A stretch of 19,143 nt of DNA from Verrucomicrobiales bacterium (GCA_046075565.1 JBJTQJ010000084.1:1-19143); one strand, 5' to 3'. Positions 2,570 to 18,803 are shown, counted from the stretch's first letter. Notes: a model not told the origin generated them from the sequence alone. Made by a program: numbers and translations.

Positions 2570-5500
2570 GGAGATGGCACGAGTTGGATCGGTGGCCGGT
2601 ATTGTTTCTCGATGGACTGCGGGAGCGGCTTCCGCTCCATGATGGTGTTCGGATTCTGATAGTAACGGAGGGTCTGTATATCCAGTTGGCCATCGAAGCG
2701 CATTTCCAACCGCCAGCGTTGCGCGGTGGTTTCGGGGAAGACCGGATGATGACCGGTGCCAACCGAGTAATTGTCCCACACGAGTGGCACCCAATCCGCA
2801 CCGTCGTGATAGTAGACACGAAGGAAGCGTGAGCCGGGGTAATCGGCATCAAGGCCATTCAAGGCGATCGCCTGGGCAAATTCGGTTTCGAGGATCAGAC
2901 GTCCATTCTCCGCATGGAAGCGACATTTGGTGTCGAGCGAAAAGTCGGCGAGATGGGCGGGATCGCCTTCCATGCGGCCGACAACGGTTGCTTGCCTGAC
3001 CGGACGTGCGATGCGGACTTGGGTGGGTTGTTCGAATTTCACGGCGTGGATCCACGGGCAGATGAAATTCTCGCTGGCCAGATTGACGAGCACCCGGTCG
3101 CCCTCGTGGGATTTGACGTATACACCGGGCTCGGGCCCGAGAATCTCCATCATCCGTTCCGCCGGATACATGCAGTCAAAGGGGATGCCCGCGATCATCA
3201 TCGCTTGCGTCTGGAAGTAGGCGCGCGGCGCGACCCGCAGGTGCAGATTCAGGCGACGAAGATTGTAATTGCTCGAGTGCGCGAACTCGATGTTGAACTT
3301 GAGCGGGCGAGAGTAGGAAATGGTGTGTTCACCGATTTTGAAGGCGATATTGGCGTTGCCATCAAAGGTTTCCTGGCTGGCGTTTTTGATTGGCTGGGAA
3401 GCGGAGAACTTCCGGATTCCTTCATCGAGATCAAATCCGTCCAGTCCGTCGGTTTCAAAAGCCATCGGCGCGGCCAAATAGTCGGCGACGATTTCAACTT
3501 TGGTCCGCAATGGGAACGGTGACTTCTCGTGCATGATCTTCTTGTCTTCATCCTGCCAATTGAGCTGGTGCATGGGCAAGGTGATCTGGAGGTCCACTTT
3601 CTGGCGATCGTTTTCTTTTTTGGCGACTATCCGGAAATCGACTCCGGTGATGAGTTCAATGGCGTGGGCCTTGGTAATGGCGGGCAGGGTGGTGTCGGCG
3701 GCGAGGGACGCAACAAGTCCGGGGGCCAGGCGTTCGACGATGGCGCGGGTGGCGGGCACGAGGTTCATGTCGCGACGCAGGGCGTGAATCTCGGCCACGC
3801 CTTGCGGGAGGTTCGCCGGGGTTTTCTCGCCCAGCAGTTCGGTGGCGAGCGCCCAGTTGCGGAGGTAGTAGGAATGGACCTGGTTGCCCCATTCGCAAAC
3901 CGGCGGGTAGTCGACTCTTTCCTGGTTCCAGAGGTCGCGTTTGCCGGTGATCGCCATATTGTGCTTGAGCGCGTTCAGCACGAGGATGGTTCCCGCCGTG
4001 CGAATCCAATTCGCGGTCACTCCTTCGCCACCTTGGAAATCGAGAGGGAAAGCGGATTTCAGGAATCCGCCATCCCAACAATCGTCGAGGGCCAGCTTGT
4101 AGCGGAAGTTTTGCATGTGCTTGAGAAAGACCGCCTCGTCCGCCGATGCGAGGGCGATGGACGCGAAGATGAAAGCGAGCGAGCTGGTGGCATGCGAGTT
4201 GTCGCCGTCGCCGATGGAGGCGTCCATACGTTCGACGAACTCCTGGACCGCGCTGGCGTGACCGCCGCCGATTTGCACGCCCAGCAATCCGGACCCGGAC
4301 ATGGCATTGCCACCGCCAAACTCCCGCTCATCCGAGCGGGCCATGCGCCGCCCGCGTCCGTAAGCATAGGTGCCGTTCACACAAACCACACCGGCATGCT
4401 GGATGATGTTAGCGACAAACTTTTTGTCATAAGTAATGGGAGTTCTTGAAGCGAGGGCCATGCCGAGGGCGAGATGCCCGGTGCCGTAGTGCTGCCCGGC
4501 TATGCCATAACCAAACCCATTGACCTTATGACCGGCCATGAAGTCGTTTTTGCAAACATCGGCCATTTGCAGGTAAGCGGCCTGAATGCCCGCGACGATG
4601 CCGGGATCCTTGCTCCGGAGATAATACTCGCTCAGGAACATGAGGCGCATTGTGCGCTCGGCCGTCCATTCACTGGGAGCCTGCTCGTAGGCGAGTCGAT
4701 AGGCGGCCTTGCGGATTTGTCCGTCGTATTTCGCATCGCCACTCGAAAGGAGGGCCAACCCGCACCACGCGGTGTCCCAGCCGTCGGTGGTGTAACCAGC
4801 GAGCCGTGGCCAGCTTCCATCCTCACGCTGTTGTGCCGCCAGCCATTCGGTGTGACGCCGGACGGTGATTTCCGTCTTGGCGCAATTCTTTGGATAGGTT
4901 TCACTGAAGCTGCCCGTCTTGCCAATCGGGAAGCGGAGTTCGACCACATGATCCTTGTGGGCACCGGTCAACGGCAGAGCGGAGTTGGTGTGATGAATCC
5001 TCGGCTGCACTTTGCCGTAGCTCAGGGCCGCGAAGTGTCCTTTGATCCTCTTGGTTCCTTCTGGCAGGGTCCATTTGCCAAAACCGGTGGCATGGAGATT
5101 GAGGCTTTGTTGGTAGGTCTTTCCCGCGACTTCGATTGGCTTCGCGGTTTCGATGGATGCTCTCCCGTATCCCGCCTGCAAAGCTTCGGGAGTAATTTCC
5201 AGAAGATTCTTCACCCCGTAGTCTCCTTCGAGAGTGACATCCATCCAAAGGGAACCATCACCATGGATATTGTCGTCGAATTGATGCGATTCGATGGTGA
5301 GCAATCCAGCGCCGGGAATTTCGACACCAAAATCCTGGACGCCAACTGATTGGTTGCCGCCGGTTCCTTGCCAGAGTTGCTTGCGTCCAACCGGCAAGGG
5401 TTGGGCGGATCCCTCCGGCACGCGCAGCACGGTCAGCCGTATGTCGCCACGCCCTTGTGCTTGATCGATCTTCTCTCCAAGCATTATCTGGATCTCGCGT

Positions 5501-6291
5501 GCGTCCTTGTGCATGAAGTTCCACTCTGGCCGGTATTGGTTGCCAGATTTTAGCATTTCGCCCTCGATGCCGATGATCAAATCTCCGGGCAAGAGATGGC
5601 CATCGGCGGGCGATCCCGGTGCCACGGAAACGACTTCTGCGGCGGTGAGGGCCAGCTCTCCGGTCGTCGCACGGAGACTCACCGGCACGATGGCGGCGAA
5701 GGCCGGACGGTTTTGCAATTGCGGAACATGGGAGCGGACTCTCACGCCGAGCGGGCCGAGGTGGCTGCCCCAGCGTTTGGCTTCCTCGGCTTGATCCGCC
5801 CCATTGGGCATCCACCCCTGTCCGACATCAGGGTAAGTTGCACGGTACTCACGGATATCGATGGGCTTGAACCCCTGGCGCACGGCAAAGCTCGTTTCCA
5901 GTGGGGCAAGTTGCTCCGCTGGTGATTGGGGAACATTGGGCGAGGTAGCCGGTTGAGTGTTCTCCTTTTCAACGGTCTTCGACGGAGATTTCGGTTCGGC
6001 GGCTTGCTCCGTGGTTTTTGGTTTGTCCTGGTTCCGCGAGTGGAGCCAATACCCCGCACAAGCAAGCAGGACCAATGCGAGCGCCACCGGAAGAAAGCCC
6101 GGAGACGAAGTTTTTGAGGATCTAGGTGGTGGCGTCGGCGTTCCGACGAGCTTGGGCCGCGAGGATGACTCCATGAGGAACTTTTCCCCGCAGCTTTCGC
6201 ATCGACCGTGGCGACCTGCAAGTGTCGCGTCCACTTCATATGTCTTGGAACAATTCGGGCAGGTAATAGGGATGGTGGTCTCGGTTGTCAT
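2566..6291 (-). CDS. Membrane-anchored multidomain protein: Zn-ribbon, TM helix, PDZ, permuted NPCBM, DUF6288-like alpha/alpha barrel, C-terminal beta-sandwich (1241 aa)
   Basis: Likely start ATG 6291 (MTTETTIPITCPNC...CESC). TM FLPVALALVLLACAGYWL; HLGPLGVR (DUF6288-like); PDZ VVSVAPGSPADGHLLPGDLIIGIEG; prenyltransferase/squalene-cyclase-type repeat WLAAQQREDGSW; C-terminal discoidin-like segment. Confidence 0.75.
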   Translation of the reverse strand: MTTETTIPITCPNCSKTYEVDATLAGRHGRCESCGEKFLMESSSRPKLVGTPTPPPRSSKTSSPGFLPVALALVLLACAGYWLHSRNQDKPKTTEQAAEPKSPSKTVEKENTQPATSPNVPQSPAEQLAPLETSFAVRQGFKPIDIREYRATYPDVGQGWMPNGADQAEEAKRWGSHLGPLGVRVRSHVPQLQNRPAFAAIVPVSLRATTGELALTAAEVVSVAPGSPADGHLLPGDLIIGIEGEMLKSGNQYRPEWNFMHKDAREIQIMLGEKIDQAQGRGDIRLTVLRVPEGSAQPLPVGRKQLWQGTGGNQSVGVQDFGVEIPGAGLLTIESHQFDDNIHGDGSLWMDVTLEGDYGVKNLLEITPEALQAGYGRASIETAKPIEVAGKTYQQSLNLHATGFGKWTLPEGTKRIKGHFAALSYGKVQPRIHHTNSALPLTGAHKDHVVELRFPIGKTGSFSETYPKNCAKTEITVRRHTEWLAAQQREDGSWPRLAGYTTDGWDTAWCGLALLSSGDAKYDGQIRKAAYRLAYEQAPSEWTAERTMRLMFLSEYYLRSKDPGIVAGIQAAYLQMADVCKNDFMAGHKVNGFGYGIAGQHYGTGHLALGMALASRTPITYDKKFVANIIQHAGVVCVNGTYAYGRGRRMARSDEREFGGGNAMSGSGLLGVQIGGGHASAVQEFVERMDASIGDGDNSHATSSLAFIFASIALASADEAVFLKHMQNFRYKLALDDCWDGGFLKSAFPLDFQGGEGVTANWIRTAGTILVLNALKHNMAITGKRDLWNQERVDYPPVCEWGNQVHSYYLRNWALATELLGEKTPANLPQGVAEIHALRRDMNLVPATRAIVERLAPGLVASLAADTTLPAITKAHAIELITGVDFRIVAKKENDRQKVDLQITLPMHQLNWQDEDKKIMHEKSPFPLRTKVEIVADYLAAPMAFETDGLDGFDLDEGIRKFSASQPIKNASQETFDGNANIAFKIGEHTISYSRPLKFNIEFAHSSNYNLRRLNLHLRVAPRAYFQTQAMMIAGIPFDCMYPAERMMEILGPEPGVYVKSHEGDRVLVNLASENFICPWIHAVKFEQPTQVRIARPVRQATVVGRMEGDPAHLADFSLDTKCRFHAENGRLILETEFAQAIALNGLDADYPGSRFLRVYYHDGADWVPLVWDNYSVGTGHHPVFPETTAQRWRLEMRFDGQLDIQTLRYYQNPNTIMERKPLPQSIEKQYRPPIQLVPSP

Positions 6292-6391
6292 GGGTCTGAC
6301 GGCTGATCGCAATATGGCTCAATCAAGAAAGGAACAGGAAGAAGAACGAGGCGATTGATTGGAATGAAGATAGCAGTTTGCCAGGGACGGA

Positions 6392-8713
6392 TCAAGGTGC
6401 GGGCAGCACGCCGATTTCCGCGGCGGCAGCATACGGTTTGCCAGCGGCGCCGACGCTGGATTTGAAGCGGACAAAACGTGCTTCGACAGTTCTGTCATCA
6501 AGTAGGATGGTGCGTTCCGATGGGTCATTCACCAGATTGCCGAGACGGAAAGGTTGCGGGGTGGTCCAGGATTTCCCATCCAGGCTGAGGGAGATTTCTC
6601 CGGCTTCGACCATTCCATCGGGCACCGCTTTGTCTTGGCGGGGCAGGTAGGTGAGACCATCAATCTTGTATGAACGGCCGAGATCGATTTCCAAAAGGTG
6701 AGGATGTGGATCGGCTGGTGACCAGCGCGAATGCCAGAAGGTCGAGGGATCGCCATCGATTGCCTTCGTCCCCGAGAACTCGGCGCTTTGTTCGCTGGAA
6801 CAAGTGTGGATTTTCCATTCTGTCGGATCGATGGAAAGCCGGGTGTCGCATGCGGGACCGGTCTGGCCGCCCGCGATGGCAATGGCCCGGATGCGTCCGC
6901 CGTCCGGCAGCAGGATGGGTTTTTCATAACGCGGTGACGCCACCGTGGGGGCGCTGCCATCGGTGGTATAATGGATTTGCAAGGCGCCGGCGGATGATGG
7001 ATCCCCTTGTCCATGGGGTTTCCAGGAGAATCCCGCGGTGGCTGGCGGCTGGATGACGACGAGACCATCGAGGCCTCTTTTCACGACGAGTGAAGGCGGC
7101 GGGATCTGGTAAAGATGTGCGGCAAAGGTGGCGATGGTGGGTTGAGCCCGCGACTCGAGGATCCGGACGCGAAAAGCAGAGGTCTTCACGCTTGGGAAGC
7201 GAAGGATGCGCTTGTAGCCGATGGTTTCGGCGGTGGCGACTTCTTGCCATTTCCCATTGATTTCCGCGTCCACCGCATGGCGGATCACCCGCTGTCCGAC
7301 TTTGCCAATCGCTTCCTGCAGAACCACGCGATTCACCGCCCGTGGCGAGGGGAAGCGGACGGTGAATTCTCCGGCGGTTGAATTCGGCTGCCAGTAAGTT
7401 TGCAAATCCTCATCTAGAACCGCCGGAGCGTCGCTGGTGGCACCGGTCGTGAGTTCGCGTGTGCCGTAGGTCGCGCGGATGCGACGCCCGGTCTCTTTGA
7501 GCGAGGCTTCGTCGCGGGGCGCGATTCTCCCCGATTTGTCCGGCGGAACATTGAGCAGGAATACCCCGTTGCCCCCGGCGGCGCGTTCATAGATATCGAA
7601 GATGTCATCGGGGCTGCGCACCGCTTGTTCATGTTCATTGCGCCAGAACCATCCGGCGCGGATCGAGGTGTTGATTTCCGGGACGAGATAAAAAAGTTCA
7701 CGTGCGGCATACTTTTCCCCGTATACCTTGTATTCCGGTAGAACCACCTTCGAGTTGGATCCGATGTCGTCATCCGGGCGGTCCACCCCTGACTCGGATT
7801 CTCCCTGCACGGGGATGATATTCCATTCGGCGGCGCGGGTCCGACCGGCTTCGTTGCCGCACCAACGCACGTCCGGACCGCCGAAGATCACGGCTTCCGG
7901 TGCAAGCTGGCGGATCAGGTCGAACCACTCCTGCTTGAGGTATTGCTGGTTGCCCTTGCGTTTGGGATGGGCACCATCGAACCAGACCTCGTGGATCGGA
8001 CCGTATTCGGTGAGGAGTTCATAAAGCTGGTTCATGAAATAGCGATTGTAGTCGTCCGCCTTCACGCGGATGACCGGGGAGTCCGCCGGCTTGTCGGCGC
8101 GCACGCGGTCCGGAGCAGCGTGGAATGAAGCGGGATCGGTAGGAATGACGGATTCGACGGAAGCGCTTTGGTTTCCGTAGAGACCATCGGGATGTTCGAT
8201 CTGGTAGAGGTCGGCCGGCGAGAGATAGACACCCAATTTGAGATCGTGTTTGCGGCAGGAATCGGCCAGTTCGCGCAGCACATCGCCCTTGCCATCGCGC
8301 CACCGGATGCCGCGCACGGAGAATTGATCATTGTATCGGGTTTGCCAGAGGCAGAAGCCGTCGTGATGCTTCACCGTAATCAGCATCATGCGCATGCCCG
8401 CTTCCTTGGCGACGCGGCACCACTGGTCGGTATCGAGATAGTCGCCCGGATGGAAAACGGCGGGGTTTTCTTTGCCATTGCCCCATTCGACTCCGGTAAA
8501 GGTATTCGGGCCGAAGTGAATGAAACATGTGAACTCCAACTCATGGAAAGCAAGCTGCCGGGGGGAGGGGACCAGATTGGCGGCTTTGCCGAGGATTTGG
8601 TCGGGGCTCTCGCCGGGTTCCAGTGGCACCCGATGCACAAAGGGTTGAGCGGCGACAGGCAGGTTCAGGCTGAGCATGATGGAAGGAAGGACTGTCCGGA
8701 GGAATGTTCTCAT
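6392..8713 (-). CDS. GH29 alpha-L-fucosidase (GH29-B-like, possibly alpha-1,3/4) with two F5/8-type C domains and an Fn3-associated domain (773 aa)
   Basis: Start ATG 8713 with signal peptide MRTFLRTVLPSIMLSLNLPVAAQ. Motifs FIHFGPNTF, KHHDGFCLW, nucleophile WFDGA, RWCGNEAG, LLNVPPD. Accessory domains: IHYTTDGSAPT and AIDGDPSTFWHSRW. Confidence 0.93.
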   Translation of the reverse strand: MRTFLRTVLPSIMLSLNLPVAAQPFVHRVPLEPGESPDQILGKAANLVPSPRQLAFHELEFTCFIHFGPNTFTGVEWGNGKENPAVFHPGDYLDTDQWCRVAKEAGMRMMLITVKHHDGFCLWQTRYNDQFSVRGIRWRDGKGDVLRELADSCRKHDLKLGVYLSPADLYQIEHPDGLYGNQSASVESVIPTDPASFHAAPDRVRADKPADSPVIRVKADDYNRYFMNQLYELLTEYGPIHEVWFDGAHPKRKGNQQYLKQEWFDLIRQLAPEAVIFGGPDVRWCGNEAGRTRAAEWNIIPVQGESESGVDRPDDDIGSNSKVVLPEYKVYGEKYAARELFYLVPEINTSIRAGWFWRNEHEQAVRSPDDIFDIYERAAGGNGVFLLNVPPDKSGRIAPRDEASLKETGRRIRATYGTRELTTGATSDAPAVLDEDLQTYWQPNSTAGEFTVRFPSPRAVNRVVLQEAIGKVGQRVIRHAVDAEINGKWQEVATAETIGYKRILRFPSVKTSAFRVRILESRAQPTIATFAAHLYQIPPPSLVVKRGLDGLVVIQPPATAGFSWKPHGQGDPSSAGALQIHYTTDGSAPTVASPRYEKPILLPDGGRIRAIAIAGGQTGPACDTRLSIDPTEWKIHTCSSEQSAEFSGTKAIDGDPSTFWHSRWSPADPHPHLLEIDLGRSYKIDGLTYLPRQDKAVPDGMVEAGEISLSLDGKSWTTPQPFRLGNLVNDPSERTILLDDRTVEARFVRFKSSVGAAGKPYAAAAEIGVLPAP

Positions 8714-8732
8714 GGGGATCTCGGGAGTCGGA

Positions 8733-9914
8733 TCACTTCGCCACCGCTTGGCCGAGTCGTTCGCCGATCGGTCGTTTGTCGGGCGGATGCACGTCCGGGC
8801 TGTCCCAACCCAGATCGATGGTCTGGATAAGCGAGACATGGGGCAATTCTTTCACCACGGTGGCTTGGACGGCGCGGAACTGCGGCCAACCTTTGCGCAA
8901 TGGGTCATCGCCGCCGATACGGGGAAGCTGGACCATAAAGAATGGAAGCTCCGTTTGCCCGAGAACTTTGCGCCAGCCACTTACCAGGTCGGTCAGGAGC
9001 AGCTTATTCCATTCATCATCGATGATCTCGGCATTGGTTTCGCCTTGATACCAAAGAACACCGGTGAGAGGGAATTTCGCCCAATCCCGCGTCCCCGCAT
9101 CGAAGAGGAAACCGGGACGGAAAGGGTGATCGATGGTGGATGCCCCGCCAAGGTTGAGTTTCGCCCGGCCACGTGCCCATGCACTGACCCGCGGGGATTC
9201 AAGCCAGTTGTCGCCCATCAGACTCGTGTAGTCATGACGAGACAAAAGCATTTCCTGTGGCAGCCACGCTTCGGCACCGCTGCCGCCGACAGAGTTGTCG
9301 ATCAGGCCGACTGGCACGCCTTTGGCTCGGTGGATGGTTTTTCCCGCCCACCAACCGACGGCGGAGAAGGTGGAGGCCGACTCCGGTGTGACCGTCTGCC
9401 ATTTTCCTTCGAAGAACTTACCCGGGGTCAGACGGTTGAGTTCGGCCGGGGTGTAGGCGCGTGCCGAAGTGTGGGTTCCTGTTAGGTTGAGCAAACGGAT
9501 GGCGGGGAATTCAGCCGCGAGCGTGGCTTCTTCTTTCCCACCCACGGCTTTTGCCAGAGGGAAATCCATGTTGGACTGACCGGAGCACAGCCAAACCTGT
9601 CCCACCAGAATATCGCGCAGGACAAGGGTTTCGTTTCCGGAAACAATGGTGAGGTCCCGCCCGCCGGATGATGCAGACAAGGCGGGCAATACGAGCGACC
9701 ACTTGCCCTCTGCGTCGGCCTTGCCACGCATGACATGATCGGCGAAGCGGATTTCCACTTCGGCAAAGGGCGAAGCCTTGCCCCAGATCGGTGCCGGTTT
9801 CTCCATTGGCAAAACCATATGGTCGGCGAAAGGACGCGCGGGAATCAATGTTGGCTCCCCGATGGAGAGAGATGCCACGGTGAAGAAGATGAAAACTGCG
9901 CGGATCATTTTCAT
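8733..9914 (-). CDS. Sialate O-acetylesterase (SASA/SGNH family), secreted (393 aa)
   Basis: Signal peptide; FADHMVLP; VGQVWLCSGQSNM (catalytic Ser); FSAVGWW; VPVGLI; VLWYQGETN; FFMVQLP; DVHPPDK (catalytic His). Confidence 0.9.
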   Translation of the reverse strand: MKMIRAVFIFFTVASLSIGEPTLIPARPFADHMVLPMEKPAPIWGKASPFAEVEIRFADHVMRGKADAEGKWSLVLPALSASSGGRDLTIVSGNETLVLRDILVGQVWLCSGQSNMDFPLAKAVGGKEEATLAAEFPAIRLLNLTGTHTSARAYTPAELNRLTPGKFFEGKWQTVTPESASTFSAVGWWAGKTIHRAKGVPVGLIDNSVGGSGAEAWLPQEMLLSRHDYTSLMGDNWLESPRVSAWARGRAKLNLGGASTIDHPFRPGFLFDAGTRDWAKFPLTGVLWYQGETNAEIIDDEWNKLLLTDLVSGWRKVLGQTELPFFMVQLPRIGGDDPLRKGWPQFRAVQATVVKELPHVSLIQTIDLGWDSPDVHPPDKRPIGERLGQAVAK

Positions 9915-10122
9915 TTCAATTTGGAATGCTCCAGGCTCGGCTCCGGTAATCTATAGTCGCTTTGCTCGCCGAGATCCACGCGTTCTCCGAATCGCCGGGA
10001 GCGGGCATGGAATTTTCGGGGGGAGAAAACGGGCATAATCAGAATCAACAGGATGGGAATTGCCAAAACCTGTGCCATACGCCAATTTGCATCCGTAAGT
10101 TTGTTCAGCGAGGAGATCCAAC

Positions 10123-10141
10123 CGGTTTGATAAACAAACCA
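10123..10141. promoter_or_regulatory. Candidate operator, motif A, copy 2
   Basis: CGGTTTG-ATAAA-CAAACCA, containing a perfect GGTTTG/CAAACC inverted repeat. Positions 10124-10141 are 15/18 identical to 1601-1618. Confidence 0.5.
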
Positions 10142-10158
10142 TCGGATTTGTATTGAGG

Positions 10159-10169
10159 TAAACCGATTG
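10159..10169. promoter_or_regulatory. Candidate LacI/GalR-type operator, motif B (TAAACCGATTG)
   Basis: Exact 11-mer repeated at 13982-13992. A related inverted copy, CAACCGGTTT, is at 10119-10128. Confidence 0.45.
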
Positions 10170-10290
10170 TATTGGAATCTTGATAGGGGCCTGCGGAGTC
10201 ATCTTTGAGTCGGGTTCGCCTAACCTGCTTGGTCCGTCCGGTGGTCTGCCTCGACCACGAGGTGAATTCCCGGCCGAGAAACCCACCAAT

Positions 10291-13200
10291 ATGCCCGCCG
10301 CAGATTCAATCAACCTGTTTGCTCCCGAGACCAGGGGGGCGAGACGTCTTTGTGGAGGATTTGCGCTCATCTCCACTCTGAGTGTGATGGCTCTGGTGGT
10401 GCTTCTCCTCTTGGCATTGCTCTCGCTTTCCGCATCTTCGGTGCGCATTTCACGCCAGGAAGTGGCGATGGCGCAAGCAAGGGCCAGCGCACGGCTCGGC
10501 TTGATGATGGCGCTTGGGCAGCTTCAGCAGACTTCCGGCCCGGACCAGAGTGTGACGGCCACCGCGGGCATGCTTGCCCAACCGGCCAACGGCAAGAAGC
10601 ACTGGACCGGGGTGTGGTCCACGCGGAATTGGGATGTGACCAAACCCAACGAGCGCGAATTTCTCGGCTGGCTGGTTTCGGATTCCCAGATCAACTCCGG
10701 CACTCCGATGGGAATCAATGATCCCGCGACTCCGGTGGCTGCCGACGGCGTGGTCACGCTGGTTGGCAGCGGAACGGCTGCCGACTCTCCGGAAGATGAA
10801 GTCAAGGCGCGTATCGTGCCGGTGGCCGGAGCGACCGGACGGACCACCTCCGCTTATGCCTATTGGGTCGGTGACCAAGGGGTGAAAGCGAGTTATGCCA
10901 TCACAGGCCAAGGCGTGCCCGACCCATGGAATGATGCCGCCCAGCTTGCCATCTTGAAGCGTGTGGGCATCGAGTCATCGAAGGTCGCGAGTCTCAACAG
11001 CTACAAGGACCTCACGGACGAGCAAATCCGCGTGGCTGGCAGTTCATTCCCCAGCATCGATTTGGCGCACGGCGCGGGCACCTCCAGACAGGTTTATCAT
11101 GACTACGTTCCTCGTTCGTTCTCTTTGCTCACCGACACCCGTCTCGGTGGCTTCGCACGCGATCTCTCGACAGCATTCGAACTGACGAATACTCAATTCA
11201 ACACTCTTTCCGAATTCCATGCCACCCGCGAGCGCAACACCACCGATGCCTACAATGACTTTGGCTCGGCCTACCGCGACGTGAAGTTCTATGGTGACCG
11301 CGAACGAAGCACCCTTGGATATCTCGCGGAAATCCGCAATGGCACTACCCTCTTTCGCGGACCGACATGGGATCTGCTGCGGAACCACTATCGCCTTTAC
11401 AAACGTGAGTGGGATACGGCGAATTCGTGGACGCGAGCCTACGCTCCGGTTGGCAACGAAAGCTTCGCGGCCCGTGGGTCCCTGCCTCTTAGTTATTCGA
11501 AGAAATACAGCGGTCCCGGAGCTCTTCCGCCCTCCTTCGATTACCGCCCCGGGATTCCATGTTTTTACCGCCGGGCCAACCGGGGGAACCCGGATTGGGT
11601 GCGGCCATACCTCCTCGACCGTCCGCGCAATGGCTTCGATACGAGCGTCGCGGATGCCATGATTCACGCGCGTTCGCCGCGACTGATGCCGATTGTGAGC
11701 CGGATTACCATCGGGTTCAGCGTCCTGCAGGTGCCGACGCCGAGCGCGCAAGACTGGAGTCTCGGTATCGCCTTCGATCCCTATGTGACGCTGGTCAATC
11801 CCTACAATGTCCCCATTTCTTTCCAATCGATCGGGCTCTTCACCGCGAAACTCAATCCCTTCAGCGGCCGAATCCGTTTCACCGACCGCGCGAACGGTCA
11901 ACGACGGGAAGCTCCCCTGGGTGATTACTTTTCTGCTAATTTTTATAACCAGGGCTCATTCTCCTTGCGGATTCCCCCGCCCGTAGGACAGAGCGCATGG
12001 GTGCTCCAGCCTGGCGAAGTCAAAGTGATCAGCCCCGTGAAAACCGGCCGCCAGGACATCAACCGCAACATCATCAACCGGGTGCGGGGCCAGTTCGAAT
12101 ACAGCGAGGACGCCGGACTCTACTTCTACTACTCGCAAAACAACAAGTGGCAGTGCAAACCCCAGGAGGGGACGACGGTTGAGTTCGAGATCACTGGCAA
12201 TGATGGCAACGAGCAGGACATGTTCACCGTCCATCTTCTCCATGCAAAGGACCATACCGGCGGCACTCGTGATGTCATGACGCACATTCCGCCGCGCGAT
12301 ATGTTCTCCGAAGACGACAGCTTCGACGACCCGCATGTAACGAAGATTTCCTACGCTCGAGGCAACACTGGTCCCGAAGGGCCGATCCTCGTCCGCCGTT
12401 CGCTGAATACCAGCCAGATACCTCGTGAGGTGAACGGTCCGCAGGCCATTGCAGCCATCGACATCAAAATGAAATCGGCCAAGGATGACACGCCGGTTTT
12501 CTGGTTGAACCCCCGCGGGCAGGCTTTTGACACCCGCGACTACGATGGCGGACAACGCACCTCGCCACTCTTCGATTCGCGCGTCTTCCCCATCGGCGAC
12601 CTGTCCGAGATCCAACTCGTCGCCAATCCGGCTGGCAATGGATTCTGGGGCGGTGGCCACACCGCTTCGAATGGCTCCATGCGTGTTGTTCTTTACGAGG
12701 TGCCGCAAATTCCCCTGACCTCCCCGGCCCAACTCCAGCATGCGGATTTCTCCCTCACCGGGAGCGGCGGGTCTTTGGTGCTTGGCAACTCGTTTGCCCA
12801 TCCCGGCATCGCCGACCGCGGATCCATCATCAGCCGGCGCAACCGTGTGGCCAACGCCCACACCGATTTCAACCAGCTCCAAACCCTCGCCGACATGGCG
12901 TGGGCCGGTAATGAAATGCTTTGGGATCGTTATTTCTTTTCCGGCATGAACTGGGGTTCGTCGAATCTTCCCGTCCTTGGTGGAACCCAGGCCTACACCA
13001 CGCAGGACACGGCAATCAATGCTCTGCTCGCCGGCAATCCGGCGGCCAAATATCCTCTGATGAATCCGAGGATGCAGCTTCTCGATCGTGTCTACTCCTC
13101 CGCTCGGCGGGATGATCTGAAGGATTATGCGAAAATCGCCGCGCATCTCGCCGTGGAAGGAGGATTCAATGTCAATTCGACTTCCGAACGCACCTGGCGC

Positions 13201-13974
13201 GCCCTCTTCTCGACCTTGCGTTCCGCTGCCATCAGCTATGCCGACAAGGGCAACGCCCGCACCGGGAAGGTTGACAATGCCTTCAGCCGTTTCACCATCC
13301 CCTCCGCTGGTGCGTCCAACTTGTGGGAAGGCGGCTTCCACAACCTGACTGACAAACAAATCGAAGATCTGGCCAAGGCCATGGTCGAGCAAGTCCGCGA
13401 ACGTGGGCCGTTCATGGGACTGTCGGACTTTGTCAATCGCCGGCTCGATGCCGGCAGAGGCCGACTTGGAACCGATGTCGGCGTGCTAGGTGCAATGCAG
13501 GCGGCCATTGAAAAGGCCGGTCTCAATGATCGCCCGGCGGTATCAAATCCGGTGACCGCCGGTTACATCGAACACCGCAATTATCAGGTCGCGGGCGCGA
13601 ACAAGTCCCTCGGCACTTTTATCGGAACCCCGGGATATGTCATGCAGGGGGACATTCTCTCCGCGCTCGGTTCCAATCTGCGCGCCCGTTCGGATACTTT
13701 TGTGATTCGCGCCTATGGGGAATCCCGGGATGCCAACGGCAGGGTGCTTGCACGGTCGTGGTGCGAGGCCACGGTCCAGCGCACCCCGGAGTTGATCGAG
13801 CCCACCACGATTGAACCCACGATTCTGGATAGTTCCTACACGGGCAACAATCCAGCCGGTGACGTGGTCCTGCGGCCGTGGCGAGCCAACCCGGCCCTGC
13901 CCGCGTCCGCAAAAAAATTTGGCCGCGATTACCAGATAGTGGATTTCCGTTGGCTTTCACCTTCCGAGATCTGA
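10291..13974 (+). CDS. Giant GspK/PilX-like pseudopilin-family protein, Verru_Chthon cassette protein A-like (1227 aa)
   Basis: ATG 10291. Class III-like leader ARRLCGG|FALISTLSVMALVVLLLLALLSLS with no Glu at +5, followed by the PilX-type helix AQARASARLGLMMALGQLQ and YAYWVGDQGVKA. C-terminal RGPFMGLSDFVNRRL, RSDTFVIRAYGE and FRWLSPSEI are typical of this verrucomicrobial family (recognised by eye). Confidence 0.8.
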   Translation: MPAADSINLFAPETRGARRLCGGFALISTLSVMALVVLLLLALLSLSASSVRISRQEVAMAQARASARLGLMMALGQLQQTSGPDQSVTATAGMLAQPANGKKHWTGVWSTRNWDVTKPNEREFLGWLVSDSQINSGTPMGINDPATPVAADGVVTLVGSGTAADSPEDEVKARIVPVAGATGRTTSAYAYWVGDQGVKASYAITGQGVPDPWNDAAQLAILKRVGIESSKVASLNSYKDLTDEQIRVAGSSFPSIDLAHGAGTSRQVYHDYVPRSFSLLTDTRLGGFARDLSTAFELTNTQFNTLSEFHATRERNTTDAYNDFGSAYRDVKFYGDRERSTLGYLAEIRNGTTLFRGPTWDLLRNHYRLYKREWDTANSWTRAYAPVGNESFAARGSLPLSYSKKYSGPGALPPSFDYRPGIPCFYRRANRGNPDWVRPYLLDRPRNGFDTSVADAMIHARSPRLMPIVSRITIGFSVLQVPTPSAQDWSLGIAFDPYVTLVNPYNVPISFQSIGLFTAKLNPFSGRIRFTDRANGQRREAPLGDYFSANFYNQGSFSLRIPPPVGQSAWVLQPGEVKVISPVKTGRQDINRNIINRVRGQFEYSEDAGLYFYYSQNNKWQCKPQEGTTVEFEITGNDGNEQDMFTVHLLHAKDHTGGTRDVMTHIPPRDMFSEDDSFDDPHVTKISYARGNTGPEGPILVRRSLNTSQIPREVNGPQAIAAIDIKMKSAKDDTPVFWLNPRGQAFDTRDYDGGQRTSPLFDSRVFPIGDLSEIQLVANPAGNGFWGGGHTASNGSMRVVLYEVPQIPLTSPAQLQHADFSLTGSGGSLVLGNSFAHPGIADRGSIISRRNRVANAHTDFNQLQTLADMAWAGNEMLWDRYFFSGMNWGSSNLPVLGGTQAYTTQDTAINALLAGNPAAKYPLMNPRMQLLDRVYSSARRDDLKDYAKIAAHLAVEGGFNVNSTSERTWRALFSTLRSAAISYADKGNARTGKVDNAFSRFTIPSAGASNLWEGGFHNLTDKQIEDLAKAMVEQVRERGPFMGLSDFVNRRLDAGRGRLGTDVGVLGAMQAAIEKAGLNDRPAVSNPVTAGYIEHRNYQVAGANKSLGTFIGTPGYVMQGDILSALGSNLRARSDTFVIRAYGESRDANGRVLARSWCEATVQRTPELIEPTTIEPTILDSSYTGNNPAGDVVLRPWRANPALPASAKKFGRDYQIVDFRWLSPSEI

Positions 13975-13981
13975 GAATATC

Positions 13982-13992
13982 TAAACCGATTG
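13982..13992. promoter_or_regulatory. Candidate LacI/GalR-type operator, motif B, second exact copy
   Basis: TAAACCGATTG(CA) in the 28-nt gap, 10 nt before ATG 14003. Confidence 0.4.
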
Positions 13993-14002
13993 CAAGCACG
14001 CT

Positions 14003-14728
14003 ATGAACTGGAATCCCTTCGCGACTATATTCTTCCTCTTTGCCTGTGTTCTTTGCCACGTCAGCATCGGGCAAGCGCAGGAGGCCCCGGAAAAAAAGCC
14101 CGTCGCCCGTTTCACCGTCTGGGGTAATTGGAGTGGCAAAGAGTTTTACATCAGAGATCCAGAAAAGCCCGACAAGGCGAAAGACGCCTTCATCAAAGTC
14201 GATCTCCTCGATCTCGGTTATTCTGCCGAGGTTGCCTTTTCCCGGGCACAGCCGATTGAACTGTGCACTCCCGAGCAGGTGGAAGGCGAAACGATCTGGC
14301 AACCCGTGATCAAAGTCGCCATCCCGGCCGACATCCGCCAGCCATTGGTCATGATCATGCCCGACGAGAAAGCAGAGCCCGGAATCAAGATCTACGATCT
14401 CGATCCCGCCACCTTTCCTTATGGCAGCTATCAAATCATCAATATGACCGAGATGAGGTTGTTCGCCAAACTCGACGACACCGGCTTGTTGCTCAAGCCG
14501 GGAGAGCATGGTCATTTCAAGGGCACCGCCCAGAGCACTCTCAATGTCTGGCTGCGGGTCGCGGCCGAGAAGCCCGACAAGGATGCCCAGGTTGTCTATT
14601 CCTCCATGATGAAGAACCGCAACGACAAACGGATGTTCATGTTCTTCAGCACGCCGAAAGATGATCCCGACGCCGAGGTTGCTGTCCGGACTCTTGTCGA
14701 TTTCGCGCCCCTTCCGGCGCAGCCTTAA
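14003..14728 (+). CDS. Secreted hypothetical protein (241 aa), probably beta-rich
   Basis: Signal peptide MNWNPFATIFFLFACVLCHVSIGQA. Fills the gap between co-oriented genes (28 and 11 nt spacers). Contains DLDPATFPYGSYQIINMT. No catalytic motif recognised. Confidence 0.8.
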   Translation: MNWNPFATIFFLFACVLCHVSIGQAQEAPEKKPVARFTVWGNWSGKEFYIRDPEKPDKAKDAFIKVDLLDLGYSAEVAFSRAQPIELCTPEQVEGETIWQPVIKVAIPADIRQPLVMIMPDEKAEPGIKIYDLDPATFPYGSYQIINMTEMRLFAKLDDTGLLLKPGEHGHFKGTAQSTLNVWLRVAAEKPDKDAQVVYSSMMKNRNDKRMFMFFSTPKDDPDAEVAVRTLVDFAPLPAQP

Positions 14729-14739
14729 GTGAGTTTAAC

Positions 14740-16737
14740 ATGAAAACAATGATTCTTGCCGCATCCCTCGCGGCCATGCCAACCTTGGGCGCGGCCCAAA
14801 ACCTCCCCATCATCCCCAAACCCTTCGAGGAAGCCCTCCTCGCCGGGGAGTTCCCCCTCACGCCGGAAACGGTCATCCGTTTCGATTCCCGGTTGCGCGC
14901 CGAAGCCGAACTCTTCGCCGTCGATCTCGGCAAACGCCTCGGTCGCGAAGTGAAGACCGTGGATGAACGACTGCGGATTTTCACTCCGAGCGCAATTTAT
15001 CTTGATCTCTCCGACAGCCCGGGGGCCAAGGAAGCCTATCTCATGGAAATCCAGCCGGAGTCGGCGAGAATCACCGGGCACGATGCCGCCGGGGCATTCT
15101 ACGGCACGCGGAGTTTCCTCCAATTGCTGCCTTCCGATGGACCGCCAACGATTCCGGCTTGTCGGTTGAAGGACGCACCGCGTTTCGGTTGGCGAGGAAT
15201 GATGCTCGATGTGGGCCGCCACTATCAGAAAACGGAGGACATCAAGAAGTTCATCGACTCGCTCGCTTTCCACAAGATGAATGTCTTCCACTGGCATCTG
15301 ACCGAAGACCAAGGTTGGCGCATCGAGATCAAGAAGTATCCCAAACTCACCGAAGTAGGCGCATGGCGCGAATCAAGCCCGCCTTATGGGAATCGCAATG
15401 GTTCCGACGGCATCCGCTATGGTGGCTTCTACACGCAGGATGAAATCAGGGAGATTGTCGCCTACGCGAAGGCTCGCCACATCACGGTCGTGCCGGAAAT
15501 CGAAATGCCCGGTCATGCCGCCGCAGCCATCGCCGCTTATCCGGAATTCGGCAACAAGGACATACCCGGTTACGCACCCAAGGTGGAAACAAGCTGGGGC
15601 GTCAAGCCCTATACCTTCGCCCCCACCGAAGAGACCTTTGTTTTCCTCGAAAACGTGCTCACCGAAGTGCTTGCCCTCTTTCCTTCGAAATACATTCATA
15701 TCGGGGGAGACGAGGCACCGAAGGACCAATGGAAAAAATCCGCCACCGCCCAAGCGGTCATCAAACGCGAGCACCTCAAGGACGAACACGAGTTGCAGAG
15801 CTGGTTCATCCGCCGGATCGAAAAATTCCTCGCCTCGAAAGGCCGGCGCCTCATCGGCTGGGACGAAATCCAGGAGGGTGGATTGCCGAAAACCGCCACC
15901 ATGATGGTCTGGCGCGATAGCAATTGGGCAAAACACGCGCTCGATCTCGGCAACCAGGTCGTCATGGCACCCACCAGCCACACCTACTTCGATTATTACC
16001 AGGAGCCGGCGGAACAGGCTCTCGCCAAAGGTGTCGAATACGAGGCCATCGCCGGATTCCTTCCCATTGAGAAGGTTTACTCATTCGACCCGGCATTCGT
16101 CGCGACGGATGAGAATCAGAAGAAACTGATCCTTGGAACGCAGGCCCAGCTTTGGGCTGAGTATTTCAAGACCTGGGACAAGGTGGAATACATGGCATAC
16201 CCGCGTATGGCCGCGCTCGCCGAAGTCGCATGGTCACCGCTTGCTAAAAAAGACTACGAGGATTTCCTCGCCCGCCTCGAGCCGATGCTAGCACGCTATC
16301 GCGCGGACGGCATCAAGGTCGGGCCGGTCTTTTACCCGCCGAAGAGGGAAACCCGCGACGGCTCGACAGTGGCCACCTCGCTCGGCACCTATTCGAACAA
16401 CTGGCCGGAACTCGCCTTCGACGGTCGTCATGACACCTTCTTCTGGGCCGACCGCGATCTGCGCGTCGATGATCATTTTACCCTCCGGCTCAAGCAACCC
16501 GCGCGGGGCGGAAAAGTGACCGTCGCAACCGGTGGTCCGGCCAGCCGCAACCTCGACAAACTGGAGAATGGCTTGCTCGAAGTTTCAACGGAGGGAACTG
16601 CCTGGACAAAGATCGCCGACTTCGCTGACGGCACCGCCACCGGTGAAGTTCCTCCTGGCACAAAGCATCTTCGCCTGCGGGTCACCAAAGCACAGACCAA
16701 CTGGCTCATTCTCCACGAGATCCAATTCGAACCATGA
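14740..16737 (+). CDS. GH20 beta-N-acetylhexosaminidase with C-terminal F5/8-type C (CBM32-like) domain (665 aa)
   Basis: Signal peptide; IIPKP; DAPRFGWRGMMLDVGRHY; MNVFHWHLTEDQGWRIEI; PEIEMPGH; catalytic YIHIGGDEA; IGWDEI; AQLWAEY; YPRMAALAEVAW; C-terminal AFDGRHDTFFW. Confidence 0.96.
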   Translation: MKTMILAASLAAMPTLGAAQNLPIIPKPFEEALLAGEFPLTPETVIRFDSRLRAEAELFAVDLGKRLGREVKTVDERLRIFTPSAIYLDLSDSPGAKEAYLMEIQPESARITGHDAAGAFYGTRSFLQLLPSDGPPTIPACRLKDAPRFGWRGMMLDVGRHYQKTEDIKKFIDSLAFHKMNVFHWHLTEDQGWRIEIKKYPKLTEVGAWRESSPPYGNRNGSDGIRYGGFYTQDEIREIVAYAKARHITVVPEIEMPGHAAAAIAAYPEFGNKDIPGYAPKVETSWGVKPYTFAPTEETFVFLENVLTEVLALFPSKYIHIGGDEAPKDQWKKSATAQAVIKREHLKDEHELQSWFIRRIEKFLASKGRRLIGWDEIQEGGLPKTATMMVWRDSNWAKHALDLGNQVVMAPTSHTYFDYYQEPAEQALAKGVEYEAIAGFLPIEKVYSFDPAFVATDENQKKLILGTQAQLWAEYFKTWDKVEYMAYPRMAALAEVAWSPLAKKDYEDFLARLEPMLARYRADGIKVGPVFYPPKRETRDGSTVATSLGTYSNNWPELAFDGRHDTFFWADRDLRVDDHFTLRLKQPARGGKVTVATGGPASRNLDKLENGLLEVSTEGTAWTKIADFADGTATGEVPPGTKHLRLRVTKAQTNWLILHEIQFEP

Positions 16738-18803
16738 AAGCCGCCCATATTCTTTTCCTGCTTCCCCTGGTGCTCAACGCTGCCTGGGAACTCCCCGCAG
16801 CGCAGGCGGTCGGCACCCCGCCCGCCGCCACTTTCCCGGTGGACGTTAAAATACCCGGCCTGATTCCCACGCCGCAGCACGTCGAGTGGAAGGACCAAGT
16901 CGCTGCCATCACCGCCGTCTCGATGGAATTCAAGAGCGACAAAGTGACCCCGTTCGCCAAACAAAGGCTCGCGGATATCCTGCGCGAAAATCAACTCAAT
17001 CCCAGCGGCGGCGACTATCGGATTCTCTTCCAGGACGGTCCTCTCAACGTTCCGCGAAACCGCAACGAAGCCTACCACCTGCAAACATCCGCCAGCGGTG
17101 CCGTCCTCACTGCCGAAACCACCGCCGGTTTCTTCTATGGTATAGAGACTTTGCGCCAACTCCTCGTGCGCAACGAAGGAAAAACAACCATTGCCCATGC
17201 GGAAGTCCTAGACTACCCGGCCTTCCAAATCCGCGGCTTCATGCACGATGTCGGCCGGAATTTCCTCTCCCTCGATCTGCTCAAGAAGCAGGTCGATCTG
17301 ATGAGCCGCTACAAATACAACGTCTTCCACTGGCATCTGACCGAATACCACGGCTGGCGTTTGGAGAGCAAAGTCTTCCCGGAGTTGCAATCCGAACGGA
17401 CATTCCAGCGCTTCCCCGGCAAATACTACACGCAGCGTGAATTCATCGATTTTGTCAAATACTGCCACGATCGGAACATCACCGTTATCCCGGAATTTGA
17501 TACGCCCGGCCACTCCGATGCCTTCCGCGCCGGCTTGAATATCCCGAACATGCGCGACCCCCGTGCCCGCGAGGCCATGATCAAGTTGATCGACGAACTT
17601 TGCTCGCTCGCTCCCGCCGAAATCATGCCCTACATCCACCTGGGCACGGACGAGGTGCGCAACGAAGCCGAGCGTGTTGATGCCGACTACCTGCCCGCCC
17701 TCTTTGATGCGGTCCGCCGCAACAATCGCGAAGTCATTGGTTGGTGGAAGGGCATGACCGTGTCCGGAGACACAAAACAGATCCAACAGACGTGGGCCGA
17801 AATTGATCCCCGACGCGGCATCCGTCACATCGATTCACGCGGGAATTACATCAATCACATCGATCATCTCACCTTCAAAACCTTTGTCACTTTCCAGCAA
17901 CCCTGCCGCGTCCCGCACGGGGACGACAACAACCTCGGCGGCATCCTCTGCTACTGGCCCGACCTCTATGCTCCGGATGAAAACACCAGCATGCTCAACG
18001 CACCTGTCTGGCAGATGTTGGTCGCCTACCCAGAAGTTGTCTGGAAAGGTGTGCCGAAGAACGATGGTCGCTACTGGTCCACCGTTCCGCCTCCGGATAC
18101 TGCCGAGGGCCGCCGCTATCGCGACATCGAGAAGCGTCTCATCGAACACCGCGACCGCTTCCTCGCTGGCATTCCGTTCATGACTGTCGCCAATTCCCAT
18201 ATCGAATGGCGATTGCTCGGCCCGCTCGATGCCGACGAACTCGCCGCCATCGATCCTGTCAGGATCCAGGCCAGCTATCAGGAAAACGGCAAAACCTTCG
18301 CTTGGTCCGAACCCGTATATGGAGGCACTATCGAGATCCGCCATCCCTTCAGCGGCACCCGCATGCCCTATGGCGGCCACTTCGCCAAGGCACCTGCGGT
18401 AAAGACCAAAGCGTATGCCTTCACGCGGATTTACTCGCCCGAGGACCAGACGGTGGATTTCTGGATCAACTTCAATACCATCTCGCAGTCCGACGACCGC
18501 GCTGGTCGTCCGGTCAAAGGACAATGGCATGCCAACCGGCAGTGCAATGTTTGGATCAACGGCAATTCGATTCCCCCGCCGGATTGGAAAAGTCCCGGCA
18601 AGGCTGGCAAGGAAATGGCCCTCATCGACGAGGTTTACACCAACCGCCCGCCCACACCCGTCGCTCTCAAAAAAGGCTGGAACACCGTGCTTGTCTCCGC
18701 CGGTCGGCAGTTCAAATGGCACTTCACATTCTGCCCCGTCCGTCTAGAAAATGGCCATGCCCGTGAAGTCCCCGGCTTGAGGTTTTCGTCGGAACTCGAG
18801 TAG
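16734..18803 (+). CDS. GH20 beta-N-acetylhexosaminidase (HLGTDE subtype) with C-terminal jelly-roll-like domain (689 aa)
   Basis: ATGA overlap with the upstream stop; signal peptide; DYPAFQIRGFMHDVGRNF; YNVFHWHLTEYHGWRLES; IPEFDTPGH; YIHLGTDEV; C-terminal VWING...LKKGWNTVLV. Confidence 0.94.
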   Translation: MKAAHILFLLPLVLNAAWELPAAQAVGTPPAATFPVDVKIPGLIPTPQHVEWKDQVAAITAVSMEFKSDKVTPFAKQRLADILRENQLNPSGGDYRILFQDGPLNVPRNRNEAYHLQTSASGAVLTAETTAGFFYGIETLRQLLVRNEGKTTIAHAEVLDYPAFQIRGFMHDVGRNFLSLDLLKKQVDLMSRYKYNVFHWHLTEYHGWRLESKVFPELQSERTFQRFPGKYYTQREFIDFVKYCHDRNITVIPEFDTPGHSDAFRAGLNIPNMRDPRAREAMIKLIDELCSLAPAEIMPYIHLGTDEVRNEAERVDADYLPALFDAVRRNNREVIGWWKGMTVSGDTKQIQQTWAEIDPRRGIRHIDSRGNYINHIDHLTFKTFVTFQQPCRVPHGDDNNLGGILCYWPDLYAPDENTSMLNAPVWQMLVAYPEVVWKGVPKNDGRYWSTVPPPDTAEGRRYRDIEKRLIEHRDRFLAGIPFMTVANSHIEWRLLGPLDADELAAIDPVRIQASYQENGKTFAWSEPVYGGTIEIRHPFSGTRMPYGGHFAKAPAVKTKAYAFTRIYSPEDQTVDFWINFNTISQSDDRAGRPVKGQWHANRQCNVWINGNSIPPPDWKSPGKAGKEMALIDEVYTNRPPTPVALKKGWNTVLVSAGRQFKWHFTFCPVRLENGHAREVPGLRFSSELE
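16808..16827 (+). repeat. 20-bp direct repeat GGTCGGCACCCCGCCCGCCG, copy 1 (copy 2 at 19012-19031)
   Basis: Exact match read from the sequence. Both copies encode VGTPPA just after the signal peptide. Confidence 0.9.

Follow-up and report, generated by a model that had tools for sequence, protein, structure and literature searches.

A giant protein with a pilin-type N-terminus and its secreted partner form a conserved gene pair of Verrucomicrobiota, possibly a pilus tip with a link to glycan use

We analyzed a 19,143-nt stretch of DNA from a Verrucomicrobiales bacterium (GCA_046075565.1, JBJTQJ010000084.1:1-19143), hereafter the window, which is organized as two divergent gene arms. The right arm opens with the gene for a giant protein, here called A, followed by the gene for a secreted partner of 241 amino acids (aa), p241, and two genes for glycoside hydrolases (GH) of family 20. 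As judged from sequence comparison across genomes, A and p241 make up a two-gene module that is real, widespread and conserved in Verrucomicrobiota and Kiritimatiellota. The module is apparently undescribed; no description of the gene pair was found in the literature searched, which lacks most subscription papers. By the same kind of evidence, A carries the N-terminal signature of the GspK type, i.e., of the cap-forming minor (pseudo)pilins that lack Glu at position +5. Our preferred reading, which we hold with somewhat less than even confidence, is that A and p241 might be an exchangeable GspK-class tip subunit and its secreted partner for a (pseudo)pilus machine encoded elsewhere. The features of the right arm are as follows.

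10291-13974, + strand: gene A, open reading frame (ORF) call of 1,227 aa from its ATG, prepilin-type N-terminus
10291-10359, + strand: leader peptide of A, residues 1-23, ending in Gly-Gly ahead of Phe+1
10360-10455, + strand: mature N-terminus F-A-L-I-S(+5) and hydrophobic helix of A, residues 24 to ~55
11458-12660, + strand: least conserved centre of A, residues ~390-790, from the conservation profile
13138-13974, + strand: best conserved C-terminal block of A, residues ~950-1227, from the conservation profile
14003-14728, + strand: p241, partner of 241 aa with a Sec signal, from a family without a Pfam model
14740-16737, + strand: GH20 beta-N-acetylhexosaminidase with signal peptide and a C-terminal F5/8-type-C/MGAT4-like domain
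16734-18803, + strand: second GH20 with signal peptide, in 4-nt overlap with the first GH20

A scan of 185,579 species genomes matched at least 606 stretches, of which at least 594 encode a relative of A. We compared the neighbourhoods of the best 80 of these loci with 10-kb flanks, a set that leaves out orthologues of A at 70% identity or more (P0004-P0015). Going by their database labels, the 80 loci are nearly all from Verrucomicrobiota and include one complete Kiritimatiellota genome. Their ORFs were called by script, greedily as longest ORFs, and then clustered; ORF starts may hence be over-extended. The p241 of the window fell into an ORF cluster of 71. When both families were assigned with profiles, 73 of the 94 A-family ORFs with a downstream neighbour had a p241 homologue immediately downstream on the same strand, with a median gap of 12 nt. 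The 94 ORFs include fragments, and several of the 21 without partner represent either such fragments or the leading gene of a tandem. Tandem modules were found in loci L040, L047 and L080, and two or three copies of A were present in 16 of 72 assemblies, counting these 80 loci alone. The initial annotation of the window had described A as an orphan among pilins with the 241-aa gene as its partner, and had proposed a count of paralogues. Both descriptions hold for the family as a whole, and several paralogues per genome do exist. Canonical prepilin genes of the GFTLxE type occur only seven times across the 80 loci and never within two genes of an A-family member, so that the absence of the B/C/D genes normally found in Verru_Chthon cassettes, or of the I/J genes of gsp operons, is a family rule. 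In the window itself, Pfam and NCBIfam detected no further pilin, secretin or ATPase domain in the 9 large ORFs, in agreement with the initial annotation.

Codons 22-24 of A (GGA GGA TTT) give G-G|F, with the Phe at 10360-10362, and residue +5 is Ser, not Glu. A single hydrophobic segment spans residues ~19-55. The prepilin-like G|F site at this Phe codon and the lack of Glu+5, both claimed at the outset, could thus be confirmed. Of 203 family members with a length of 1000 aa or more, 183 carry the motif too, and because it is kept across the family it is not due to chance. The 183 motif bearers have Gly at −1 in 176 and Phe at +1 in 175 cases, and none has Glu or Asp at +5; this position is V, L, A, I, S, T, M or G. 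The 20 members without the motif are mostly N-terminally truncated gene calls or lie at contig ends. Leaders of 103 database homologues have a median length of 17 aa and are net positive in all cases. GspK/PilX proteins likewise have no Glu+5 and cap the (pseudo)pilus tip. Kiritimatiellota-type copies (L024, L025) start with G-S-V/A-L-L-L-T-L-L-V instead of G-F-A-L-V. P0003, a gene caller's version of A, has its start within the hydrophobic helix, at Met33, and has lost the G|F site, and database homologues such as P0005, P0030, P0064, P0066 and others are similarly truncated. In these entries the pilin signature is therefore hidden from annotation.

The partner p241 of the window has an N-terminal Sec-type signal and no family match, just as the secreted protein of unassigned family described after A in the initial annotation. 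Its family is extremely divergent, with a mean column identity of 14%, and its members begin with a signal-like hydrophobic N-terminal stretch, as judged by eye. Pfam gave no match in 86 p241 members, and a PDB profile search gave none below E 0.07. Searched against 1.84 billion representatives, the p241 profile found 4,995 clusters at E<=1e-3, with 4,233 left at the stricter E<=1e-10. Nearly all are stand-alone proteins of 210-270 aa. Mature p241 is a compact protein of ~215 residues. The Atlas model of the window p241 is confident (predicted template-modelling score, pTM, 0.74), and its neighbours are unnamed Verrucomicrobiota proteins; a feature score of 0.78 to AlgF (PF11182) is a weak lead at a level rated as often due to chance. 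Invariant residues in the subfamily of the window p241 include W43, S74, N147, S200, R206, K209, R210, F215 and D233. Distances among p241 proteins correlated equally poorly with those of all three parts of A (Spearman 0.19-0.24) and were uninformative. P0394 (1,094 aa), a secreted protein and the one long protein with a p241 domain, was considered as an A-p241 fusion and rejected: the ~880 residues that precede its C-terminal p241-type domain are unrelated to A and have no Pfam match. It hence offers no Rosetta-stone evidence. Some loci contain a second, longer p241-family gene (304-338 aa) directly after the first, i.e., L011 (10190-11206), L037 (15030-15986) and L046 (14357-15271), with lipoprotein-like Cys motifs in those of L011 and L037. 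Tandem-domain forms of p241 also exist (P0250, P0289, P0275).

In the mechanism we favour, A would be cleaved by prepilin peptidase and would then be the first subunit to be loaded, at the tip of a fibre. This fibre would be of the type II secretion or type IV pilus-like kind, with its other parts encoded elsewhere. p241 would join A in the periplasm as co-tip or adaptor, in analogy to the non-pilin PilY1, which joins minor pilins at the type IV pilus tip. Several divergent copies per genome could then serve as alternative tips, with specificity in the divergent centre of A and/or in p241. In the window, the recomputed gaps between A, p241 and the two GH20 genes are 28, 11 and −4 nt, exactly the spacing to the secreted protein and the two GH20s given in the initial annotation, and a promoter/terminator scan, which performed at chance level, found no terminator-like site between these genes. 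The module and the two secreted hexosaminidases of family GH20 would share a transcript, and tip and enzymes would hence appear together. As the preferred output, a polymer substrate might be bound at the cell surface, with the selection of enzymes for secretion as a close second. The likeness to the type IV pilus tip of minor pilins and PilY1, a pilin-anchored tip with a Sec-exported non-pilin, is an analogy only: we found no sequence relation to PilY1, and p241 has ~215 residues compared with more than 1,000 in PilY1.

Several results weigh against a GspK-class tip with a role in glycan use; they concern the remainder of A, the missing machine and the gene neighbourhoods. A database search gave 257 homologues of A at E<=1e-3, the closest named relative being that of Haloferula sp. 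A504 with 71% identity. A reached 22.6 bits against the NCBIfam model of GspK (NF037980; cut-off 130), with residues 23-98 only, and 20.1 bits against TIGR02600 (cut-off 332.3), where residues 23-83 match profile positions 1-61 of 1,296. These scores are far below the curated cut-offs and cover the N-terminal 60-80 residues only, so that by score A belongs to neither family; the ~1,150 residues past the helix have no assigned fold. Weak N-terminal matches were also seen in 26 diverse relatives, 19 of which matched TIGR02600 (best E 2.4e-9) and 16 the NCBIfam GspK model. Pfam found nothing in A at E<=10 apart from a 15-bit NOMO1-like match. The GspK domains T2SSK_1st and T2SSK matched neither A at this threshold nor the 26 relatives, and PilX_N (PF14341) gave no match in the window protein and three marginal ones among the relatives (E>=0.0057). 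Membership in the TIGR02600, GspK and PilX_N families, which had been put forward for checking with profile hidden Markov models, is thus not borne out. PDB profile searches found nothing for A and nothing usable for a long form of 1,995 aa.

The initial annotation had also seen family-like termini around a central region rich in Arg, Asn, Tyr, Trp and Phe. For the N-terminus this was supported by hhalign, which aligned residues 17-81 of A with the GspK helix in an alignment of E. coli K-12 GspK and homologues (probability 92%, E 6.6e-7). For the C-terminus it could not be confirmed, as the family models match N-terminal residues only and four sub-regions of A beyond the helix aligned with GspK at a probability of at most 1%. 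Local alignments found three short co-linear motif pairs between A and GspK, not above shuffled controls (FNVNS with FNLN, RGPF..DFV with RP..GW..FL, and RSDTF.IRA with the last GspK strands); the scores of A against GspK had z values of 0.4 (global) and 1.9 (local) relative to 60 column shuffles. In the ESM Atlas, the Pfam-bearing clusters nearest to the 1,227-aa A were HHH_3 (0.90), T2SSK_1st (0.79) and T2SSK (0.79), which are leads only. Within the family, the top-residue frequency is ~0.3 in residues ~390-790 and 0.5-0.6 in the flanks, and the C-terminal block contains the invariant motifs FNVNS, RGPF..DFVNR, RSDTF.IRAYGE and WCEA.VQR. The compositional bias of the centre is real but slight: the five residues make up 25.9% of residues 331-800, compared with 16.9% and 22.4% in the N- and C-terminal parts of A; their share in six other window proteins is 19.3%. 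Trp shows no enrichment.

A resembles GspK in its prepilin-type leader, hydrophobic +1 residue, missing Glu+5 and long N-terminal helix. In contrast to GspK (NF037980; T2SSK_1st, PF21687, and T2SSK, PF03934), A is four times larger, shows no significant match to the GspK globular domains, lies outside a gsp operon and not beside gspI/gspJ, and is paired with a Sec-exported partner and multi-copy. TIGR02600 has a profile length of 1,296, close to the size of A, stems from the same phylum and has the same kind of N-terminus, and several A homologues are named Verru_Chthon cassette protein A in UniRef; however, no B, C or D prepilin genes stand beside A in the window or the 80 loci. No paper on the Verru_Chthon cassette was found in the literature searched. 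The labels on A homologues in UniRef and NCBI, 'Verru_Chthon cassette protein A', 'PilX family' and 'FAD-binding oxidoreductase', are unreliable. P0019 of Sulfuriroseicoccus oceanibius, for example, is a full-length homologue (48% identity, 98% coverage) that bears the last of these names, probably by annotation error. Finally, pilin, secretin or ATPase genes were not found near the module, and the fibre machine is for this reason hypothetical.

The gene neighbourhoods were examined for carbohydrate-active enzymes (CAZymes), with which the initial annotation had expected homologues of A to be associated. By Pfam scan we compared 257 genes at a distance of up to two genes from a module, together with three genes of the window, with 132 randomly drawn genes located five or more genes away. 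The class counted was a strict one of CAZymes and sulfatases (GH, polysaccharide lyase (PL), SASA, AXE, sulfatase, GxGYxYP and DUF2961, which we take to be GH172), leaving out GDSL esterases, a BD-FAE esterase, proteins with only carbohydrate-binding modules and one GH42 match (E 4e-8). Such enzymes made up 43 of 260 near genes (16.5%) compared with 12 of 132 far genes (9.1%), an odds ratio of 2.0 (p=0.047). Without the window, the p value was 0.084, and the overall enrichment is weak. Both counts are lower bounds, because Pfam misses some CAZymes, such as a heparinase-like lyase in L060 that was recognised only via PDB 8khv (E 2.7e-96). A CAZyme or sulfatase lies within two genes of the module in 29 of 78 loci. 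On a FastTree phylogeny of 84 A-family members aligned with hmmalign, the CAZyme label changed 25 times compared with 26.2 times in shuffles, 165 of 500 of which were as low; CAZyme adjacency is hence not clustered on the tree. In the 12-row subclade of the window, only the window and L005 bear the label. Housekeeping genes are frequent among the neighbours (purH, pnp, hemE, ubiE, gyrB/A, hisG, aroA, folP), also in most of the window's own subclade (L002-L004, L006-L008). In 32 of the 64 modules with a downstream gene, the next ORF lies on the opposite strand, six of these ORFs being shorter than 100 aa, and about half of the modules stand alone.

These observations would fit a generic (pseudo)pilus tip for adhesion, motility or envelope functions, with its proximity to CAZymes a by-product of CAZyme-rich genomes. 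We consider this explanation rather unlikely, even though the weak overall enrichment, the unclustered label, the housekeeping genes around most members of the window's subclade and the CAZyme share among distant genes all speak in its favour. Against it stand the genes that directly follow the module. We selected co-directional genes of at least 100 aa at a distance of up to 250 nt that are not A-family members (n=21); the subset was chosen post hoc, with gaps taken from longest-ORF starts, a caveat to this evidence. In 10 of these 21 cases the next gene encodes a CAZyme or sulfatase, namely GH20 (window and L005), DUF2961, GH16, two GH10, a sulfatase, SASA, GH29 and the lyase of L060. The remaining 11 comprise six unknowns besides two S8 proteases, one ABC ATPase and two transporters (MFS and SDF). 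Compared with the 12 of 132 far genes, the difference is pronounced (p=6e-5), and it persists in a conservative count with Pfam calls only and the window left out (8/20, p=0.001). A generic tip would also leave unexplained why the gene order A-p241-GH20 recurs between A proteins of only 40% identity. This order is common to the window and L005, since the GH20 after the module in L005 is related to the first GH20 of the window (39% identity); the L005 enzyme probably starts 52 codons (~150 nt) later, at its signal peptide.

Co-directional subtilases (Peptidase_S8) were found downstream in L038 (4507-6069), L067 (14251-15846) and L076 (5576-7465), directly after the module in the first two; downstream hydrolases are therefore not only glycan-active. 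The expected association with CAZymes is thus seen in part of the loci and among co-directional genes, whereas overall it amounts to about twofold and does not follow the tree. We conclude that the link of the module to glycans is genuine in a subset of loci and not general.

Within the tip reading, this leaves two more specific functions. The first is a substrate-specific device for glycan capture and import, a functional SusCD analogue in which glycan would be bound by the variable centre of A and/or by p241 and brought to the periplasm by fibre retraction. We rate it as rather unlikely, at the level of the generic tip. Some modules lie inside operons that resemble polysaccharide utilization loci, with transporters and LacI regulators (L024, L025, L047). 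The Kiritimatiellota locus L024 has, all co-directional, SASA, A, p241, GH10, an SSF symporter, an unknown and LacI, and L047 has three sulfatases, two modules, GH29 and MFS. Besides the enzymes among the co-directional genes, the capture function would agree with the high divergence of both p241 and the centre of A, and with the window proteins, none of which contains a SusC or SusD domain. However, Pfam detected no carbohydrate-binding domain in 26 A-family or 86 p241 members, CAZymes or sulfatases are close to only a minority of the modules, their adjacency is phylogenetically unstable, and half of the modules stand alone.

Work on related bacteria lends some weight to a pilus-based capture of glycans. 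Akkermansiaceae show selfish glycan uptake (PMC13174399), and the same source describes in Akkermansia the type IV-like pilus locus MUL2 (amuc_1099-1102) and the Sus-like MUL1, with glycan uptake depending on mul genes (PMC13174399). According to the accessible parts of two further papers, MUL genes encode pili and periplasmic complexes (PMC12418764), and mul1A is a mucin transport gene (PMC12570417). The reliance of selfish uptake on pilus-like mul genes (PMC13174399; PMC12418764) would thus be a precedent for capture. In the alginate cluster of an Opitutales isolate, a pulG-like pseudopilin is reported that has 67 paralogues (PMC13274419). Like these systems, the A-p241 module would represent Verrucomicrobiota pilus or pseudopilin genes tied to glycan use; the known systems, however, comprise small pilins, PilM and unrelated proteins, in contrast to the giant Glu5-less A. 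The available text of PMC13174399 and PMC13274419 does not mention a giant Glu5-less pilin or a p241-type partner, and one supplementary file of PMC13174399 contained 0 matches to PilX, pseudopilin, GspK, Verru_Chthon or minor pilin. With SusC/SusD, the module shares that it is a conserved multi-copy pair found among CAZymes, transporters and regulators in some loci (L024, L047 and the window). In contrast to SusC/SusD, neither A nor p241 nor any other window protein has a TonB-dependent barrel or a SusD fold domain, and half of the A-p241 modules are outside any CAZyme context. In its boldest form, the analogy would make the A-p241 modules the missing outer-envelope device for glycan capture and uptake in Verrucomicrobiota and Kiritimatiellota, a SusCD counterpart with interchangeable, substrate-specific tips of a retractile fibre, the window copy of which might be tuned to N-acetylglucosamine-containing host or chitin-type glycans. 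We think this quite unlikely.

The second function is cargo selection: as tip or adaptor of a type II secretion pseudopilus, the module would push co-encoded Sec-exported hydrolases, here the two GH20s, through the secretin. It appears improbable as well, and within the tip reading we place glycan capture a little above it. The GspK-type signature of A would agree with it, and in Pseudomonas Xcp the GspK-I-J tip contacts substrates. All enzymes of the window operon have signal peptides, and the secreted hydrolases found downstream of modules are varied (GH20, GH10, GH16, GH29, DUF2961, PL, sulfatase, S8 protease). In Rubritalea tangerina (L004), an operon at 18585-20592 (− strand), 5-7 kb from a module, contains a true gspG (125 bits). 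Behind it come an H-like gene, an unannotated ORF of 143 aa and a J-like pseudopilin gene, with a regulator after these. This operon, a single anecdote, contains no gspK-like gene, which fits a K that might be supplied in trans. On the other side, cargo selection shares the gaps that count against capture, and the stand-alone modules have no obvious cargo. Furthermore, many enzymes of such loci are expected to be periplasmic, following a model in the accessible part of PMC11790493.

That A is no fibre subunit at all, but a large periplasmic protein tethered to the inner membrane by its uncleaved helix and partnered in the periplasm by p241, would agree with pilin likeness in the first ~80 residues only, with the lack of neighbouring pilin genes and with a size of 130 kDa, which is large for secretin passage, but we consider it very unlikely, since Gly −1 and Phe +1 are kept far above the needs of a plain anchor, leaders are short and always positive, and proteins of the size of PilY1 are displayed on type IV pili.

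The remaining features of the window are those of the left arm and the region between the arms.

1-1653, − strand: GH20, at the open end of the left arm and running off the window
1685-2569, − strand: YdjY-domain protein, left arm
2566-6312, − strand: DUF6288 protein of 1,248 aa, left arm
6392-8839, − strand: GH29 fucosidase with F5/8-type-C domains, left arm
8733-9914, − strand: SASA-type esterase, left arm
9915-10290, no strand: divergent intergenic region between the SASA esterase gene (−) and gene A (+), presumed promoter region

The G+C content of the window is uniform (0.56-0.61), and all its enzymes have Sec-type signal peptides. Both GH20s of the right arm match PF00728 (E 3e-119 and 6.5e-37). 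In the presumed promoter region, the promoter/terminator scan, overall at chance level as stated above, found no sigma-70-like site; the region holds short palindromes only (10116-10131 and 10267-10280), and Rfam gave zero matches across the window, this region included. The DUF6288 protein has an N-terminal zinc ribbon and a weak PDZ match and is followed by the YdjY-domain protein. The same pair (clusters c48 and c49) lies upstream of the module in L002, and DUF6288 proteins adjoin modules in L044 and L063. PDB sequence and profile searches gave nothing usable for either protein, and no mention of DUF6288 was found in the literature searched. Some taxon labels among the loci deserve caution. 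L011 (CAZPYE010000016.1) is labelled 'uncultured Enterobacteriaceae bacterium', probably wrongly, because its A is sister to that of an Opitutales metagenome-assembled genome with full support. L038 and L059, from lake metagenome-assembled genomes labelled 'Akkermansia muciniphila', look mis-assigned.

How large glycans enter the periplasm of Verrucomicrobiota without SusCD is the question on which the module may bear. With A-p241, a gene pair is defined that is concrete, abundant and multi-copy, has a pilin-type anchor and is located within CAZyme operons in some loci. The analysis also delimits two protein families without a Pfam model, one of them with ~5,000 representative clusters. The idea of a SusCD analogue is a hypothesis. 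The module may form a pilus tip, its link to glycan use being partly supported, and it presents a testable candidate for glycan capture or enzyme secretion.

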